Source: a virus. From it: a DNA stretch of 64,000 bases. Location of the stretch: the IMG/VR virus record IMGVR_UViG_3300032093_000021, positions 1 through 64,000 of that record, one strand, 5' to 3'. Position numbers and translations under genes: made by a program. Every line of letters starts with the position of its first letter. Within the stretch, counting starts at the first letter, position 1. Shown piece by piece: positions 1,653 to 14,722 of this stretch. A model generated the notes under the pieces. It saw only the letters and a program-made list of their open reading frames with translations, was not told the DNA's origin and did not search any database.

Positions 1653-2108
1653 TTACTTGAGAAATCTCAATTTATATAGTGTGGATTGGATTAACTGAAT
1701 AACGTTATCAATTTGATTATCAAGATAAGAATCTTTAACATCTTTTCTCAATTTTTCTACGAGAGATGCCAGATCTTGGAAATATGTAATTGTCTTTTCA
1801 ACACTTTCAAATTGTTTTACGCCATCGCAAGTGTAGTTTTCTATGATTCCGTATTTGCCTTGGTATGATTCAACAAGATCATCCATAATACCTACAATCC
1901 CGGAATAATAATCTTCATAAGCTTTGTGAGCCGCAAAACTACCGGTCTTAATAACTTGCCAGTGAAATATCTGAACCTGATTTCTTGAAGTTAAAAGTTT
2001 GGATATCATCTTTTCGAATCCTTTAGAACCTTTTTCTGATTGTTCAGAAATCATATCACTTCTCAATTTGAGAGTTAAAATATCTTTTTTTGTCATTTCT
2101 TTTTCCAT
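1653..2108 (-). CDS. Ferritin/Dps-like protein (DUF5856-like)
   Basis: FHWQ...AHKAYEDYY...DDLVESYQG four-helix iron-binding pattern. Confidence 0.75.
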   Translation of the reverse strand: MEKEMTKKDILTLKLRSDMISEQSEKGSKGFEKMISKLLTSRNQVQIFHWQVIKTGSFAAHKAYEDYYSGIVGIMDDLVESYQGKYGIIENYTCDGVKQFESVEKTITYFQDLASLVEKLRKDVKDSYLDNQIDNVIQLIQSTLYKLRFLK

Positions 2109-2965: not shown

Positions 2966-4090
2966 TTAATTTGAGAGTGGTATTTTAATTGTTGGATGAC
3001 TTTGATAATTTTCAATTACAAAATCAGTATTATCTAAATGAGTTATAAGTGATAGATCTTCAGATAAGGTTCTATAGAACTCATCTGTCTTCATATGTTT
3101 AAGAGTTGGTAGTTTATATGGTTTTCTTGTTATCTGTTCTTTAACACCATCAATTTGATTATTATAGATATGACAATCACCCATATTTGTAATCAATTCA
3201 TCAGGAACCATATTAACCATTTTCGCAATAATCTCTAACAATAAAGCGTAAGATGCAATGTTAAACGGTGTTCCTAATGGGACATCTTGACTTCTGGCAT
3301 TATACATTAGAGAAATTGCTCGCTGTGGCCCATTTTTGAGTTTTTCTTCTAATGTTAATGTGTCAAAATCATTCAAATCCTTTTTAGTGGGAATCAAGTT
3401 AATTTTCTCATCCATACTCAACTCTCTTGTATAAACTTGGAATCCATAATGACAAGGTGGTAAAACCATTTGATCCAACTCACCTACATTCCAAGCATTA
3501 ACCATCAACCTACGACTATCAGGATTTGTTTTGAGTTCGGAGATTAGGTTTGCGATTTGGTCAATACCCGTTCTATATAAATTTTGATTCCATTTCTCAA
3601 AATTATCTGCATCTTCTTTTGTTAATTTCCATTTACCGTTCCAGTCTCTCCACTGCCTACCATATATCGGTCCTAGTTCACCCCACTTATTTGCAAACTC
3701 ATTATCGGTTTTGATTTTGTTGATGAATTCTTCTTTTGATTCTTTACTATTTAATAACTGTGTAACAGCCCGTTCCTTTGCTTCTGCAGGTTCAATTTTA
3801 ATGGTTTCGTTTAAGTATCTCTTATATGCATCACCATCCCAAATATGACAATCATTGTCTACAAGATATTTGATATTTGTATCACCACGTAGAAACCAAA
3901 GCAACTCAGTTATGATACCTTTGGTATACATTTTCTTTGTAGTTAATAATGGGAATCCTTCTTCCATTCGGTGAACTATTTTCCAACCGAATACAGATCT
4001 AGTACCTGTTTCAGTTCTATCACTCTTATTATTACCAAACACTAATATGTGTTCAAGTAGTTCTTTGTATTGTCTGTCTATATTATTCAT
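2966..4090 (-). CDS. thyA: Thymidylate synthase
   Basis: DRTETGT, ELLWFLRG, LGPIYG, RRLMVNAWN, LPPCH, RSQDVPLGTPFNIASY, GDCHIY. Confidence 0.97.
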   Translation of the reverse strand: MNNIDRQYKELLEHILVFGNNKSDRTETGTRSVFGWKIVHRMEEGFPLLTTKKMYTKGIITELLWFLRGDTNIKYLVDNDCHIWDGDAYKRYLNETIKIEPAEAKERAVTQLLNSKESKEEFINKIKTDNEFANKWGELGPIYGRQWRDWNGKWKLTKEDADNFEKWNQNLYRTGIDQIANLISELKTNPDSRRLMVNAWNVGELDQMVLPPCHYGFQVYTRELSMDEKINLIPTKKDLNDFDTLTLEEKLKNGPQRAISLMYNARSQDVPLGTPFNIASYALLLEIIAKMVNMVPDELITNMGDCHIYNNQIDGVKEQITRKPYKLPTLKHMKTDEFYRTLSEDLSLITHLDNTDFVIENYQSHPTIKIPLSN

Positions 4091-6604: not shown

Positions 6605-8470
6605 TTATTTTTTTATAAGTTTGAATGTAAAATTAGTCATTAAATCGTTATAAACCAAAACTTTTATGAAAAAAAATCCTGAACTTACTAAATTATTGAT
6701 ATTGAGTGTATTTTGACCATTAATAAATTTCCTTTGATCAAATACTAATTTACCGGATGCGTCGTAAATGAATACCTCTTGATCATATTTATATTTTCCG
6801 AAATCTGATATAAGATTTGAACCCTGAAGATAAACGTTTACTTTATTAGTTGAATTTATATTTGGATAGATTGTTCTGGTCTCATTTAGTTCCAAAACAC
6901 CATTAAAACTAAAACCCCATATCCAAAATTTTGAATTCGCCCCTCCATCTCCATCAACAACCAAATAATATGTTTTACCAATTTCAGAAGTAAAACAATG
7001 TTGTTGATTATATTGTGTTCCGGCGGTAGTTCCATATATTGAAGGTCTTGGACAAGAAACAACCTGCCAGTTTGGGTCATTAGTTGGAGTTTTTGATACT
7101 TGAGTGCATGGATCGTTATCATTATCTAAATTCACATCTGTAACAACTATACTTTGTAATGCCACACTAGTTCCACTAATACCACTAATGGATAAACACG
7201 TATTAGATGCTGTCGCAGTATATTTGATCCAAACATCATTATTATTTGCAAAGTTCCAACCACAGGTAGCACCTCCAATGGTTCCAAAACTATTGGTGTT
7301 AGGTCCTCCTAAAGAACCTGGCATCTGTGTGCTACCGGACATTCCCGTTGTGTTGGCACATATCGGAGAAGAACCATCCCATACTATAGGATTGGAGCAA
7401 TTATCTCCGGTTGTTCCTTGTGAAATAATATTAGGATCCCCAAAGAAAAGACGAATATCATCAATACAAGGTGGGAAAGCAGTCGTTTCACTAAATATAA
7501 TTTTCCAAGTTCCATCAGCGTTTCCTGTGAAATTAGAATAATAAGTAGGAGTTCCTTGATATTGAGCATTGAAATATCCATTTTTACCTATCGCAGTTAA
7601 TGGCGCTCCTCCATTAAAATCATTCAAAACATTTGGATTATTCAAACAAGTCGTAAAACTAACAAGATTAAGATAATGGGTTCCTGTTGCAGAGGTTGAT
7701 AATCCTCCACTGTATATACCATAACATGTTCCGTTAGGGGACATTATTCTGATCTGTAAAGCGTCAAAATTTTTAGTCCCGGTCCCACAATCATTAAGTC
7801 CTAAAGAAACTAGTAATAGCTGATTGACAGAAGTCATATTTCCAACACCACTAACAGGAATATTAAATACACTCGGAGATGAAGATCCGGGATTTGCACA
7901 AGAACCTGTAGCGTTATCAAGATTTATTATGGGATTATTATCAAGCGTAAATATTTTTCTCGGGGTAGTTGAAACAGTATATGAGAATATCGTAGCATTT
8001 GAAGCTGGTCTATTTTCAACGGAGCAAAAAGTTCTTGGGGCGTTTCCACAACCATTTCCAAATATTTCATCTCCTCCACCACTATGCCAAGCACTAACGA
8101 TATACTTTACTACAGTTCCCGCAGGTTGAGCCGGTATTGTCCCAAAAACAGCATCAACAACAGGAGAACCAAAGTTATGATCAAATGTTACATTTACAAC
8201 TTGTGTGGTTCCATTTCCAACACCAAAAGCCCCGGATGGATTACTTCCATCAGTTGTATAATAAATTCTTGCTTGATTCCAATAGAACTGAAATTCAATT
8301 TTGAATCCAATCTTTACTGATTGAGTTCTATTTGGTGTCATTACATCTCTGAATTGTAAGGATGTAAGTCCTATGGTATTTGTCGTTGCTTCATGATATA
8401 CATAATCCGCCTCAGCGAAACAAAATAAATGGATAAGAAGTCCTAATAGAAATATGAAAATTTTTTTCAT
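6605..8470 (-). CDS. Secreted multidomain protein with T9SS type A sorting domain
   Basis: Signal peptide; IYYTTDGSNP FN3-like unit; P-domain-like SPNGT...ADGTW; C-terminal IYDASGKLV...SGFFFIKV...FKLIKK. Confidence 0.75.
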   Translation of the reverse strand: MKKIFIFLLGLLIHLFCFAEADYVYHEATTNTIGLTSLQFRDVMTPNRTQSVKIGFKIEFQFYWNQARIYYTTDGSNPSGAFGVGNGTTQVVNVTFDHNFGSPVVDAVFGTIPAQPAGTVVKYIVSAWHSGGGDEIFGNGCGNAPRTFCSVENRPASNATIFSYTVSTTPRKIFTLDNNPIINLDNATGSCANPGSSSPSVFNIPVSGVGNMTSVNQLLLVSLGLNDCGTGTKNFDALQIRIMSPNGTCYGIYSGGLSTSATGTHYLNLVSFTTCLNNPNVLNDFNGGAPLTAIGKNGYFNAQYQGTPTYYSNFTGNADGTWKIIFSETTAFPPCIDDIRLFFGDPNIISQGTTGDNCSNPIVWDGSSPICANTTGMSGSTQMPGSLGGPNTNSFGTIGGATCGWNFANNNDVWIKYTATASNTCLSISGISGTSVALQSIVVTDVNLDNDNDPCTQVSKTPTNDPNWQVVSCPRPSIYGTTAGTQYNQQHCFTSEIGKTYYLVVDGDGGANSKFWIWGFSFNGVLELNETRTIYPNINSTNKVNVYLQGSNLISDFGKYKYDQEVFIYDASGKLVFDQRKFINGQNTLNINNLVSSGFFFIKVLVYNDLMTNFTFKLIKK

Positions 8471-9582
8471 AAATTAACTATTTTTAAGGTTTTGGTGTAA
8501 AATGTATATCTGTAGTAAATTGTTATATTCAAATAATAAAACCCTTTTGGAAGTTGGTAAACCTTATTTCCCCTAAAAATCATTCTTTCAATACCTATCG
8601 ATCTTCCGTCAGAAAGATAAGAAGAAATGTTCACTTGTGTTTCTAAATCGGTATTGAATACTATTGTATTTCCAAAAATTTTATATTGAAACCCGGATGG
8701 TAAACCTGGTCTGATGGTTGTATTATTTTGCAGATCTAAAGTCACATCACATATACAACCTTTTCTAATTGTATCTTGAATCCATATTTGGTTATTAGGG
8801 TTATTGAAAGCCCCGGGTGTTGCTGAAGCCGCAGAACCTGTAATCCAATTAGTAGAGGTATAATACCCACTTAAATCAAGTCCATTGTATGCATAGAATG
8901 TGTTAGCACCATTAGTTGTTGCAACTAAAGGAGCCAAAGAGTTTCCAACCATATTAGCCGCAGCTCCACAAGATGATAAAGTGGTCCTACCGTAAACTAC
9001 CGCATGGACTAAATTGAATGAAGGATCTCTTAATTGTAAACCATCACCGGCATTAGCAGCATTTATTGTATTCCAATTACCAACACCATATGTCAAACAA
9101 TCTGAATATGATAACTTTGTGCTACAACTCAAAGCGGCAGGTGCCGTAGTGCATGATTCCAAAGAAACATGATTTGCAGGTAAAACATAAACACAATCAT
9201 TATTAAAATCGTATGGATCATCAGGAGGAATTGATAAATCACGATCCAAATCATTATAGATTATAATAATAGCACCCACAGGTAATCTTGTCCAAGGCGC
9301 AACATTTTTGAATCTTAAATGACCATTTGCAAACCCACTCCCGAAATTGTTACTCGAAGGTGAAAAGGTTCCATCATTATCATCAATTACCCAACCCGCA
9401 CAATTTAATGAATTGGTAAAACAACCACGAAGGCTTGCCGCAGTTGGTGTAGTTGGAGCTACAAGTAATTCAATCCACTCTTTAGATCCTGATGGACCAT
9501 TTGAAAACTCATTAATTCTTAGCGTCTGTCCAAATATTGTTAAACACAGTATTTGAAATAATATTATTAATTTTAACTTCAT
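8467..9582 (-). CDS. Secreted lamin-tail-domain protein with T9SS-like tail
   Basis: Signal peptide; LRINEF...EWIELL...ATPG; C-terminal LPKGFYYL...TLKIV. Confidence 0.7.
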   Translation of the reverse strand: MKLKLIILFQILCLTIFGQTLRINEFSNGPSGSKEWIELLVAPTTPTAASLRGCFTNSLNCAGWVIDDNDGTFSPSSNNFGSGFANGHLRFKNVAPWTRLPVGAIIIIYNDLDRDLSIPPDDPYDFNNDCVYVLPANHVSLESCTTAPAALSCSTKLSYSDCLTYGVGNWNTINAANAGDGLQLRDPSFNLVHAVVYGRTTLSSCGAAANMVGNSLAPLVATTNGANTFYAYNGLDLSGYYTSTNWITGSAASATPGAFNNPNNQIWIQDTIRKGCICDVTLDLQNNTTIRPGLPSGFQYKIFGNTIVFNTDLETQVNISSYLSDGRSIGIERMIFRGNKVYQLPKGFYYLNITIYYRYTFYTKTLKIVNL

Positions 9583-9732
9583 ACATCATTGGTCATAAGG
9601 ATCCGGACTACAAATATGTTTTCTCCACCATCTACCAAAAACTGTATTCTCATTTTTAGAAACAATTTTCTCCCCTATGATTAAACCAAAAAGATAAATA
9701 AAAATAATAGAAATAATAAACAAAATCATAAA

Positions 9733-10368
9733 TTAATTTTTGAAAATTTTGAAAGTATAATAATCATAAAACTTATTTTGAACATAAACCCTAACATAGT
9801 TCAACCCTTTTGACAAAAAAAGATTTGTATTCAAGGAAAGATTTTTTTTAACTTGACTGAATTGTGAATATGTTAATCTTCCATTATTATCAAAAACGGA
9901 TATATTTACATTTTCCGTCAAAGATCCAAAATCAAAATTCAAAAAACCTTTATCAAAAAAAACTTTATATTGTTGATTTTCTCTTATAAAAACTATTCCC
10001 GGTCTATTTTCCAACGATAGAACACCCAATGTTATAACAACCTCCAAAAACCCCATATCAGGATTAGAAACACAAGATGTCTCAGCTTTCGCCCTGAACT
10101 TAATTTCAGTAAGTGGTAATCTTGGAACCAAAACCCAAATAGAGTCATTAGGTCCAATATTGTGATCAATAGCGGGATCGGTGTCCGCTTTGGTCCTTAT
10201 CACAACCGGACAAGATTGTTTATTTTTAACTGTGAAAATGTAATTCCCATTGTCATACCCGACAACACGAATAAGAACAACATTGTTTTCAAAGAATTGA
10301 CCCCCATTTTGAGAAAATCCAAAAGATGAAAGTAAAGATAAGATGACGGATAAAAATACCTTTTTCAT
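9733..10368 (-). CDS. Secreted protein with T9SS-like sorting tail
   Basis: Signal peptide ending FS-Q; VFDNNGRL...LSKGLNYVRV...FKIFKN. Confidence 0.7.
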   Translation of the reverse strand: MKKVFLSVILSLLSSFGFSQNGGQFFENNVVLIRVVGYDNGNYIFTVKNKQSCPVVIRTKADTDPAIDHNIGPNDSIWVLVPRLPLTEIKFRAKAETSCVSNPDMGFLEVVITLGVLSLENRPGIVFIRENQQYKVFFDKGFLNFDFGSLTENVNISVFDNNGRLTYSQFSQVKKNLSLNTNLFLSKGLNYVRVYVQNKFYDYYTFKIFKN

Positions 10369-11812: not shown

Positions 11813-12502
11813 TTAAAACAAAGATTTTTTTCCTCGTTGTTGTATATTTTGTCTATTTTTCATGAAAATATCAAAATCACTTGATCCTTGGCCTCCGTCG
11901 GTTTTAACACCTTGATTTCCATCGGTTTTAACACCTTGATTTCCATCGGTTTTAACACCTTGATTTCCATCGGTTTTAACACCTTGATCTCCATCGGTTT
12001 TATCTCCTTGGTTTTGATCAATTTTTACCTCATTTCCTTTATCGGTTTTATCTCCTGAATTTCCACAGAATGTCAAAGGTGTTTGAGGTGGGTATATGGA
12101 TTGTATAATACAAACCTGAGCCATTACTTGTTCTTTATTTGTACTCAATTGTTTTAATAATTCACTTCTCATGAAATTTTTTACGCATTGGCAGGGATCT
12201 TCTTTTTCACCACAAGGAACCGGATTAGGATTCAAAATTGGTACTTTTGTGGTTGCCATAGTTGGGTTTTTTAAACCGGTTATTGCTTTTTCAATCATAT
12301 CTTTTTCTTCCTTACTCAACTTCTTGTAATCTTCTGTTTTTTGATAACTTTCAAAATCTCCAGCAATTTGGTCACATGTTCTATTGGCCAAATAATAATC
12401 CAAATATGCTTTGATTTCATCTTCTGGAGATTCTCTCAACAATCCGTACATTTTACGAATTTCATTTTTTTCTGACTCTGTAATTATAAATCTTTTTTTC
12501 AT
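11813..12502 (-). CDS. Hypothetical protein with IITESE leader and GVKTDGNQ repeats
   Basis: Leader nearly identical to 12506..13501. Confidence 0.65.
   Translation of the reverse strand: MKKRFIITESEKNEIRKMYGLLRESPEDEIKAYLDYYLANRTCDQIAGDFESYQKTEDYKKLSKEEKDMIEKAITGLKNPTMATTKVPILNPNPVPCGEKEDPCQCVKNFMRSELLKQLSTNKEQVMAQVCIIQSIYPPQTPLTFCGNSGDKTDKGNEVKIDQNQGDKTDGDQGVKTDGNQGVKTDGNQGVKTDGNQGVKTDGGQGSSDFDIFMKNRQNIQQRGKKSLF
11895..12010. repeat. 24-bp coding tandem repeat (about 4-5 copies)
   Basis: Unit ccatcggttttaacaccttgattt encoding GVKTDGNQ. Confidence 0.9.
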
Positions 12503-14627: not shown

Positions 14628-14650
14628 TCTTTTTTTGAAACTTTTTTTTG

Positions 14651-14722
14651 TTGCGGCGATTGGATTCGAACCAATGATCCCTAGGTTATGAGCCTAGTGA
14701 GATACCACTTCTCCACGCCACG
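14651..14722 (-). tRNA. tRNA-Met(CAT), initiator type
   Basis: Cloverleaf CGTGGCG...CTAGG-CTCATAA-CCTAG...ATTGG-TTCGAAT-CCAAT-CGCCGCAA; C1:A72 mismatch; CCA not encoded. Confidence 0.93.

Follow-up and report, generated by a model that had tools for sequence, protein, structure and literature searches.

Three adjacent phage genes encode candidate cargo proteins for a host type IX secretion system

Introduction

Does a phage load the infected cell's type IX secretion system (T9SS) with proteins of its own? The question is raised by three neighbouring genes, termed A, B and C, in a 64,000-nucleotide stretch of DNA that covers positions 1 to 64,000 of the IMG/VR virus record IMGVR_UViG_3300032093_000021. 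This stretch, referred to as the window throughout, forms the first part of a single contig of 140,164 bp with a guanine-plus-cytosine (GC) content of 32.5%. In a preliminary description of the window the products of the three genes were taken to be Sec-exported cargo with T9SS type A sorting signals in their C-terminal domains (CTDs). The analysis described here points in the same direction. Proteins A, B and C are probably non-enzymatic binding proteins that are exported via the Sec pathway and the T9SS of the host by a large Bacteroidota phage. Judged by profiles, a reciprocal search, folds, a conserved lysine and tail swaps, this proposal has good support in the case of A and C and moderate support in that of B. 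The check that had been suggested for it, a search with the hidden Markov models (HMMs) TIGR04183 and Por_Secre_tail (PF18962), went the other way in that no tail reached a curated threshold. Instead of being type A tails of the standard kind, they appear to make up a subfamily that is narrow and diverged.

Results

The three open reading frames (ORFs) were recovered exactly where the preliminary description had placed them, next to one another on the minus strand (Table 1), with the stop codon of B and the start codon of A overlapping by 4 nucleotides (ATGA). All three products begin with a basic n-region that is followed by an uncharged hydrophobic stretch of 13–16 residues. Signal peptides were judged by a crude heuristic scan for n- and h-regions combined with inspection by eye. 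The scan marked 7 of the roughly 155 likely genes on the contig, and 4 of these looked cleavable by eye, including A, B and C. The n/h/c layout of the N-terminus was kept across hundreds of homologues, and the Sec signal peptides that had been proposed for all three proteins were upheld on these grounds. Conservation extends into the predicted mature start of the proteins. Homologues of A keep the motif (A/G/S)E(A/P)(D/N)YVYHE at this position, while Q19 of B is invariant in 27 homologues and Q20, N21, G22, G23 and Q24 of C are invariant in 44. The glutamine at position +1 after the predicted cleavage site of B and C fits the Bacteroidota 'Q-rule', the presence of glutamine after signal peptide cleavage, which is specific to this phylum (PMC5837995) and has also been seen in exported proteins of Porphyromonas gingivalis phages (PMC10367356).

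Each protein closes with a tail of roughly 85 residues that ends at the last or second-to-last residue and has a lysine at position -5 (FKLIKK in A, LKIVNL in B and FKIFKN in C). The column holding this lysine is at least 90% conserved (alignment A3), and a lysine lies within the last eight residues of 119 out of 137 related tails. According to Lauber et al. (2024), the translocon reads the fold of the CTD and not sequence motifs, and a near-invariant lysine close to the C-terminus is functionally important (PMC10994853). The tail motif given in the preliminary description, IYD..G..V ... G.Y.I.V ... K.IK, is present in A and C; B departs from it, reading SYLSDGRSIG ... PKGFYYLNITI ... LKIVNL. 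A tail HMM, built from homologues of A, B and C themselves, was run against the roughly 155 genes of the whole 140-kb contig and matched these three proteins only (86.6, 78.1 and 44.5 bits), with the next best score at 8 bits. That only A, B and C have the tail, that they are adjacent and that they account for three of the four cleavable-looking signal peptides was counted in favour of T9SS cargo.

The kinship of the tails to type A CTDs was investigated further by profile-profile comparison and by reciprocal search. Alignment with hhalign to PF18962-positive tails gave values of 93% for C, 96% for A and 87% for B. Against canonical tails obtained from the profile search the values were 99.0% for A, 98.5% for C and 89–92% for B, compared to 0.4% for passenger-domain controls, although these figures are somewhat inflated as the canonical set (73 of 77 TIGR04183-positive) was picked by its similarity to the phage tails. 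In the reciprocal search a 14-sequence tail profile was compared with 1.84 billion representative proteins, resulting in 156 matches at E ≤ 1e-3. Just 22 clusters matched at E ≤ 1e-10, which marks the variant tail out as a narrow subfamily. The best match ended no more than 6 residues from the C-terminus in 109 of the 142 matches that were re-scored, and 73 of the 77 weaker C-terminal matches were TIGR04183-positive at E ≤ 1e-3 (best 2.5e-29). Type A CTDs appear from these searches to be the nearest outsiders of the variant tail in sequence space.

Structural comparison took in the AlphaFold2 (AF2) models of A and C, which had a predicted local distance difference test (pLDDT) score of 78.3 on average for A and 83.8 for C. 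When aligned to the CTD of T. forsythia mirolase (8qb1) with VIA-align, the modelled tail of C gave a Z of 7.6 and that of A a Z of 8.4, at a root-mean-square deviation (rmsd) of 2.0 over 71 aligned residues in both cases and at 20% and 22% identity, respectively. The tail of A also aligned over 70 of 75 residues to the CTD of NucA in the T9SS translocon of Flavobacterium johnsoniae (8glk_D, Z 8.1). In the models the tails are preceded by linkers of low pLDDT, spanning residues 525–540 in A and about 110–125 in C. For B, 19 of the 30 clusters nearest to residues 283–371 in the ESM Atlas were PF18962 (score 0.95–0.96). PF18962 was detected at E ≤ 0.01 in 24 of 47 family-A members (best 1.2e-11), CHU_C also occurs at this place within the family, and distant family-B members carry PF18962 (two) or CHU_C (one) at the tail position. 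The tail of the C homologue in a complete relative of 179.6 kb (G004) scored 24.3 bits with TIGR04183, above the cut-off. Membership of the type A CTD superfamily is accordingly graded as well supported by sequence and model for the tails of A and C, and the tail of B is moderately likely to be a CTD.

Comparison with other genomes suggested that the tails are exchanged between proteins. A protein with the variant tail, P0058, is 97.4% identical over 350 amino acids to the product of a gene in a metagenome-assembled genome (MAG) of Chitinophagaceae (L032:1796-3442, plus strand) that, in place of the variant tail, continues into a further domain and then a textbook CTD of the YPNP type; the signal peptides also differ. 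The pair looks like a very recent module swap and is direct evidence that the variant tail and a canonical CTD can take each other's place on passengers that are almost the same. Searches of IMG/VR and of the metagenome collection did not recover the contig on which P0058 lies. Tails of family C and family B in other genomes are up to 77% identical over 66 residues, and two metagenomic relatives recombine the modules of A and B: P0084 consists of the first domain of A (D1), the lamin-tail domain (LTD) of B and a tail, and P0028 of the LTD of B, the second and third domains of A (D2 and D3) and a tail. In a quick tree the main variant-tail clade, with a Shimodaira-Hasegawa-like approximate likelihood-ratio test (SH-aLRT) support of 100, was sister to bacterial genes carrying the D2–D3 core of A. 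Within the phage, the three tails are mutually 12–26% identical. Concerted evolution of these tails was considered and rejected, the tail of A being 26% identical to that of C and 12% identical to that of B.

The passengers that precede the tails were assigned from folds and family matches, and the earlier guesses of P-domain/PPC, lamin-tail and Ig-like modules for A, B and C, respectively, held. No catalytic domain was found in any of them. The first domain of A, missing from the preliminary description, best resembles the N-domain of the amylase Amy703 (8jnx; Z 12.9, rmsd 1.8, 107 aligned residues, 28% identity) along with CBM34-type N-domains, and has weak matches to Fn3_assoc and CHB_HEX_C_1. 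Together with the signal peptide D1 forms a mobile module that is 50–74% identical to the N-termini of many other T9SS cargo proteins, among them a Spirosoma protein named 'T9SS type A sorting domain-containing protein' by NCBI. The two domains that follow had no Pfam match and were assigned by fold alone, D2 from furin (4omc; Z 10.9, 117 aligned residues, 15% identity) and Aeromonas ASP (3wqb; Z 8.6), and D3 from the collagen-binding domains of ColH and ColG (3jqw, Z 10.9; 1nqd, Z 10.8) and a PPC domain (5sv5, Z 8.6). Many cysteines are invariant in family A.

Protein B scored 15.8 bits with PF00932 (E 0.019) and did not reach the gathering score of 34.3 bits. PF00932 was nevertheless detected at E ≤ 0.01 in 21 of 27 family-B members (best 5.3e-8), P0084 lying just below the cut-off with 33.0 bits, and B is probably a diverged lamin-tail-domain protein. 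The passenger of C was modelled by AF2 at a pLDDT of 87–94 and gave generic FN3 and Big_2 matches in VIA-align (best Z 8.7), which compares models domain by domain; whole-model searches with Foldseek returned only generic tandem Ig/FN3 matches. Family C has 25 invariant columns, including the mature N-terminus QNGGQ. None of the 76 homologues of C has a Pfam domain or an annotation, the ESM Atlas held no usable match for the passenger of C, and nothing useful came from searching the PDB sequences with profiles of family C and of family B. The idea that the passengers are decoy copies of phage receptor-binding domains gained no support, as no passenger paralogue was found on the 140-kb contig, which represents 47% of the genome.

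Table 1. Genes, domains and neighbouring features, with positions in the window and residues in amino acids (aa)
Feature	Position	Strand	Residues (aa)	Description
Gene A	6605-8470	-	621	Signal peptide, D1, D2, D3 and CTD-like tail; 178 homologues
A signal peptide	8414-8470	-	1-19	Cleavage predicted at CFA|EADY, without Gln; AF2 helix spans residues 2-15
A D1	7967-8341	-	44-168	CBM34-like / amylase N-domain-like beta-sandwich
A D2	7436-7963	-	170-345	Proprotein-convertase P-domain fold
A D3	6905-7432	-	347-522	PPC / collagenase collagen-binding-domain fold
A tail	6608-6859	-	538-621	Diverged T9SS type A-like CTD; YPN motif, terminal FKLIKK
Gene B	8467-9582	-	371	Signal peptide, lamin-tail-domain passenger and deviant CTD-like tail
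B signal peptide	9529-9582	-	1-18	Predicted cleavage IFG|QTLRINEF
B passenger	8728-9528	-	19-285	LTD-like, then Cys-rich stretch; nearly invariant G275, C276 and C278
B tail	8470-8727	-	286-371	Probable CTD, weakest evidence of the three
Gene C	9733-10368	-	211	Signal peptide, FN3-like passenger and CTD-like tail; 76 homologues
C signal peptide	10312-10368	-	1-19	Predicted cleavage GFS|QNGGQ; AF2 helix at residues 2-16
C passenger	10003-10311	-	20-122	FN3/Ig-like beta-sandwich; invariant C53 and C99
C tail	9736-9996	-	125-211	Diverged T9SS type A-like CTD
DUF5856 protein	1653-2108	-	151	DUF5856 match of 67.9 bits (cut-off 34.6)
P0229	2565-2960	-	131	Signal peptide with cleavage predicted at TFS|QSKY, in line with the Q-rule; lacks a CTD-like tail and a Pfam match
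Thymidylate synthase	2966-4090	-	374	Full-length phrog_160 match
Repeat protein	11813-12502	-	229	Six or seven tandem 8-residue units (GNQGVKTD / GDKTD...) near the C-terminus; no Pfam match
tRNA-Met (CAU)	14650-14722	-		Sole tRNA within the window

The distribution of the proteins was examined in viral and prokaryotic collections. Family C was found at 14 IMG/VR loci, with a homologue in each of five related phage records, two of which are rated complete. A pattern-based scan of 185,579 prokaryote species genomes gave no relative of family C, a result that is no proof of absence. Protein C is the most widely retained of the three and was found only in phage contigs. The D2–D3 core of A, on the other hand, has homologues at 36 loci in MAGs, nearly all of them labelled Bacteroidota and many from lakes, and the labels include Chitinophagales, Sphingobacteriales, Saprospiraceae and Flavobacteriales. 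Identity between the core of A and bacterial cargo was 37–59%. Homologues of the A core were also seen in MAGs labelled Bifidobacterium and Akkermansia (L037 and L053); these nest among Bacteroidota in the tree, so the contigs are probably mis-binned.

The variant tail itself was found behind an A-type passenger in a Lacibacter sp. MAG (L033:4911-6344, plus strand, contig JBMLSG010000023.1), in a gene that lies between yitT and recA. This tail scored 66.9 bits with the phage-tail HMM and was undetected by TIGR04183. The GC content of the gene is 39% in the tail and 46% in the passenger. The chromosomal yitT–recA context means that phages are not alone in having the variant tail, which would therefore seem to be a rare CTD subtype that they share with some Chitinophagaceae. 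These sequences point to a host in the Bacteroidota, probably from fresh water; a Chitinophagales-type host is the best lead, and only a lead. The many canonical CTDs of the Lacibacter MAG, at least 54, speak for a T9SS in this candidate lineage. A phage-encoded PorV shuttle had no match in the available 47% of the genome. The corresponding search for a phage PorP/SprF gave no match either, but it was uninformative as the control also matched nowhere.

That the contig is phage DNA follows from its gene content and its status as an IMG/VR virus record. It carries genes for a thymidylate synthase (thyA) and an SbcC-like nuclease, and further along those for a baseplate wedge protein, a ribonucleotide reductase, a DnaB helicase and a head-tail adaptor. 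CheckV estimated completeness at 47%, which puts the full phage genome at roughly 300 kb. The minus strand holds nearly all genes of the contig. A, B and C sit among small ORFan genes near thyA, and the baseplate gene lies far away at ~81–83 kb. Ten neighbouring genes that were scanned were all ORFans without a Pfam match. IMG/VR contigs of 121–287 kb share several other genes with this one at amino-acid identities of up to 93%. Among GenBank phages no DNA or protein match was obtained to the locus or to a large neighbouring gene. Scans for promoters and terminators gave sites no more numerous than in shuffled sequence, Bacteroidota promoters being outside the model.

Some further features of the window were recorded in passing (Table 1). 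Protein P0229, which starts with a signal peptide of its own, may be a phage protein of the periplasm or the outer membrane. The phrog_160 match of the thymidylate synthase covers 279 profile positions (29–307 of 335); the protein is longer than this span, which suggests an insertion. The DUF5856 protein, the repeat protein and the tRNA gene complete the list.

Discussion

Several results weigh against the export of A, B and C through the T9SS. Relative to curated cut-offs of 23 bits for TIGR04183, 27 bits for PF18962 and 40 bits for NF033708 (the type C model), the tail of A scored 20.6, 20.5 and 24.7 bits and the tail of C scored 20.8 bits with TIGR04183 and 15.7 bits with PF18962, all of which are below cut-off, and there was no Pfam or NCBIfam match for the tail of B. 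Only 8 of 44 family-C members matched TIGR04183 at E ≤ 0.01. When its own family was left out, the tail of B compared with those of A and C at 3.7% in hhalign and 0.4 bits by HMM. The inflation of the hhalign values against canonical tails belongs here too, as do the tail Z scores of 7.6–8.4, which are ordinary for Ig-like sandwiches and make the fold consistent with a CTD and not decisive. The Lacibacter MAG holds at least 54 canonical CTDs and the variant tail on only one gene; since the variant tail is rare even in this T9SS-rich genome, its handling may differ from that of ordinary CTDs. Moreover, the case for export is computational throughout. The sub-threshold HMM scores would fit an account in which the proteins are exported by Sec and remain periplasmic or in the outer membrane independently of the T9SS, the tail being a structural or anchoring Ig-like domain. 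Bacteroides sandwiches of the DUF3244 type score similarly (14.7 against 15.7 bits in Pfam for C), and structures of this type (4g5a and 3d33) match at Z 7.5–9.0. We nevertheless consider such an anchoring domain unlikely, as genuine type A CTDs make up 73 of the 77 nearest outsiders and the C-terminus is where most matches stop. The domain is, in addition, always terminal, lies behind a low-confidence linker, keeps its C-terminal lysine and takes the place of a canonical CTD, of type A or type B, behind the same passengers.

The tails could also dock on SprA–PorV in order to compete with or block host cargo, such that secretion and gliding are shut down or re-prioritised and the tail is what matters most. 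A distinct and narrow subfamily, unlike the at least 54 ordinary CTDs of the candidate host lineage, would suit this role, as would the movement of the tail between unrelated passengers (families C and B) and the retention of the small protein C in five out of five related phages. Against this, the strong conservation of the passengers, with 25 invariant columns in C and many invariant cysteines in A, argues for a function of the passenger, and the same tail on a bacterial chromosomal gene by recA is unexpected for a poison. As the sequence also gives no prediction of stalling, blocking was judged very unlikely. It is quite unlikely that the variant tail is more than a drifted type A CTD and acts as a sorting signal in its own right, common to this phage group and a few genes of Chitinophagaceae. 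Such a signal would confer a distinct fate on its cargo, for example by giving it priority at the translocon, by blocking the translocon or by anchoring the cargo differently, with C as a conserved core effector that changes the cell surface and, for example, excludes other phages. Finally, A, B and C might be virion or cytoplasmic proteins, such as Ig-like decorations or fibre modules, with N-termini that are not signal peptides. Phage particles often bear modules of the Ig-like, FN3 and PPC types, and the generic fold matches include tail-tip proteins of T5 and lambda. The conserved n/h/c layout of the N-termini in hundreds of homologues makes this extremely improbable, as do the position of the genes among small ORFans near thyA and far from the baseplate gene, the annotation of bacterial homologues as T9SS cargo and the lack of passenger paralogues among the other genes of the contig.

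If A, B and C are indeed cargo of the host Sec and T9SS pathways, as we favour, their predicted Sec/signal peptidase I (SPI) signal peptides would direct them to the periplasm, and cleavage would leave an N-terminal glutamine in B and C that by homology would be converted to pyroglutamate. The passengers would then fold in the periplasm, an oxidising compartment to which their many conserved cysteines are suited. By homology to known cargo, the CTD-like tail would dock on the host SprA/Sov–PorV translocon and the protein would cross the outer membrane. Either PorU would subsequently cut the tail and the passenger would be fixed to the surface, or the protein would be released. More speculatively, the surface of the infected cell would in this way be re-dressed, blocking further phage adsorption or changing adhesion, for instance. 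As the passengers consist of binding modules only, such re-dressing of the surface is likelier than degradation. The uses put forward in the preliminary description, namely masking of receptors, clogging of the T9SS and altered adhesion, are speculation.

The principle of phage-encoded T9SS cargo is not new and was published as a proposal in 2020. Bellas et al. (2020) described a 76-kb Cryophage (MT820023) with three genes for T9SS type A sorting domains, from which hijacking of host secretion was inferred (PMC7468147). The present phage probably has a Bacteroidota host and a freshwater-type habitat in common with Cryophage (cold in the case of the latter); both have three genes for predicted cargo, and the evidence is metagenomic only in both. 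The Cryophage cargo comprises enzymes (an endoglucanase and a GH39 protein) and a PA14 protein, whereas binding modules only are found here. Its three genes are variable and carry recognisable type A domains in a genome of 76 kb; those described here are adjacent, on a contig of 140 kb that is rated 47% complete, and have tails below the cut-offs. T9SS sorting-domain ORFs have furthermore been reported in crAss-like phages by de Jonge et al. (2019; PMC6949934), and the UniProt entries A0A6J5L910 and A0A6J5M2J1 are named 'Secretion system C-terminal sorting domain [uncultured Caudovirales phage]'. The former is the best structural match to the model of C in BFVD (E 9.7e-6, 17% identity). These are likewise small phage T9SS-domain proteins, from other phage groups and with other passengers, but they stem from automatic annotation or a passing reference, with neither a gene cluster nor a subfamily of tails described.

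A, B and C share with cellular type A cargo such as NucA and RemZ of F. johnsoniae (PMC10994853) or mirolase (8qb1; PMC11285876) the succession of signal peptide, passenger, linker and terminal beta-sandwich of about 80 amino acids with its lysine, and the modelled tails of A and C align with cellular CTDs at Z 7.6–8.4, rmsd 2.0–2.2 and 14–22% identity, values that many other FN3/Ig domains also reach. Unlike that cargo they are encoded by a phage, their tails score below threshold, the YPNP motif is shortened to YPN in A and missing from B and C, and their export is predicted. What is new is the set of three neighbouring genes for candidate cargo without enzymatic domains, a CTD subfamily that is narrow and lies under the curated cut-offs, the interchange of variant tail and canonical CTD on near-identical passengers, and family C, found in phage contigs only, as the conserved member of the set.

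Other phages are known to alter the envelope surface or receptors of their host by means of proteins exported via host Sec, namely T5 Llp, T4 Imm and Sp, and lambdoid Cor. Those proteins, which come from phages of Proteobacteria, are small lipoproteins or reside in the inner membrane and are not T9SS cargo, and the functional parallel is a guess. The locus offers three small, well-delimited test cases, including a protein of 211 amino acids found only in phage contigs. Together with the natural swap pair formed by P0058 and its Chitinophagaceae counterpart, these could reveal if the T9SS treats the variant tail like any other signal or as a special one.

Phages of Bacteroidota commonly use T9SS-secreted surface proteins and the machinery for gliding as receptors, and Bacteroidota are major degraders of lake polymers. 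Were it routine for large lytic phages to load their hosts' T9SS with binding proteins of their own, infected cells would carry a surface chosen by the phage, and this, if true, would have effects on superinfection, on particle attachment and possibly on carbon turnover.

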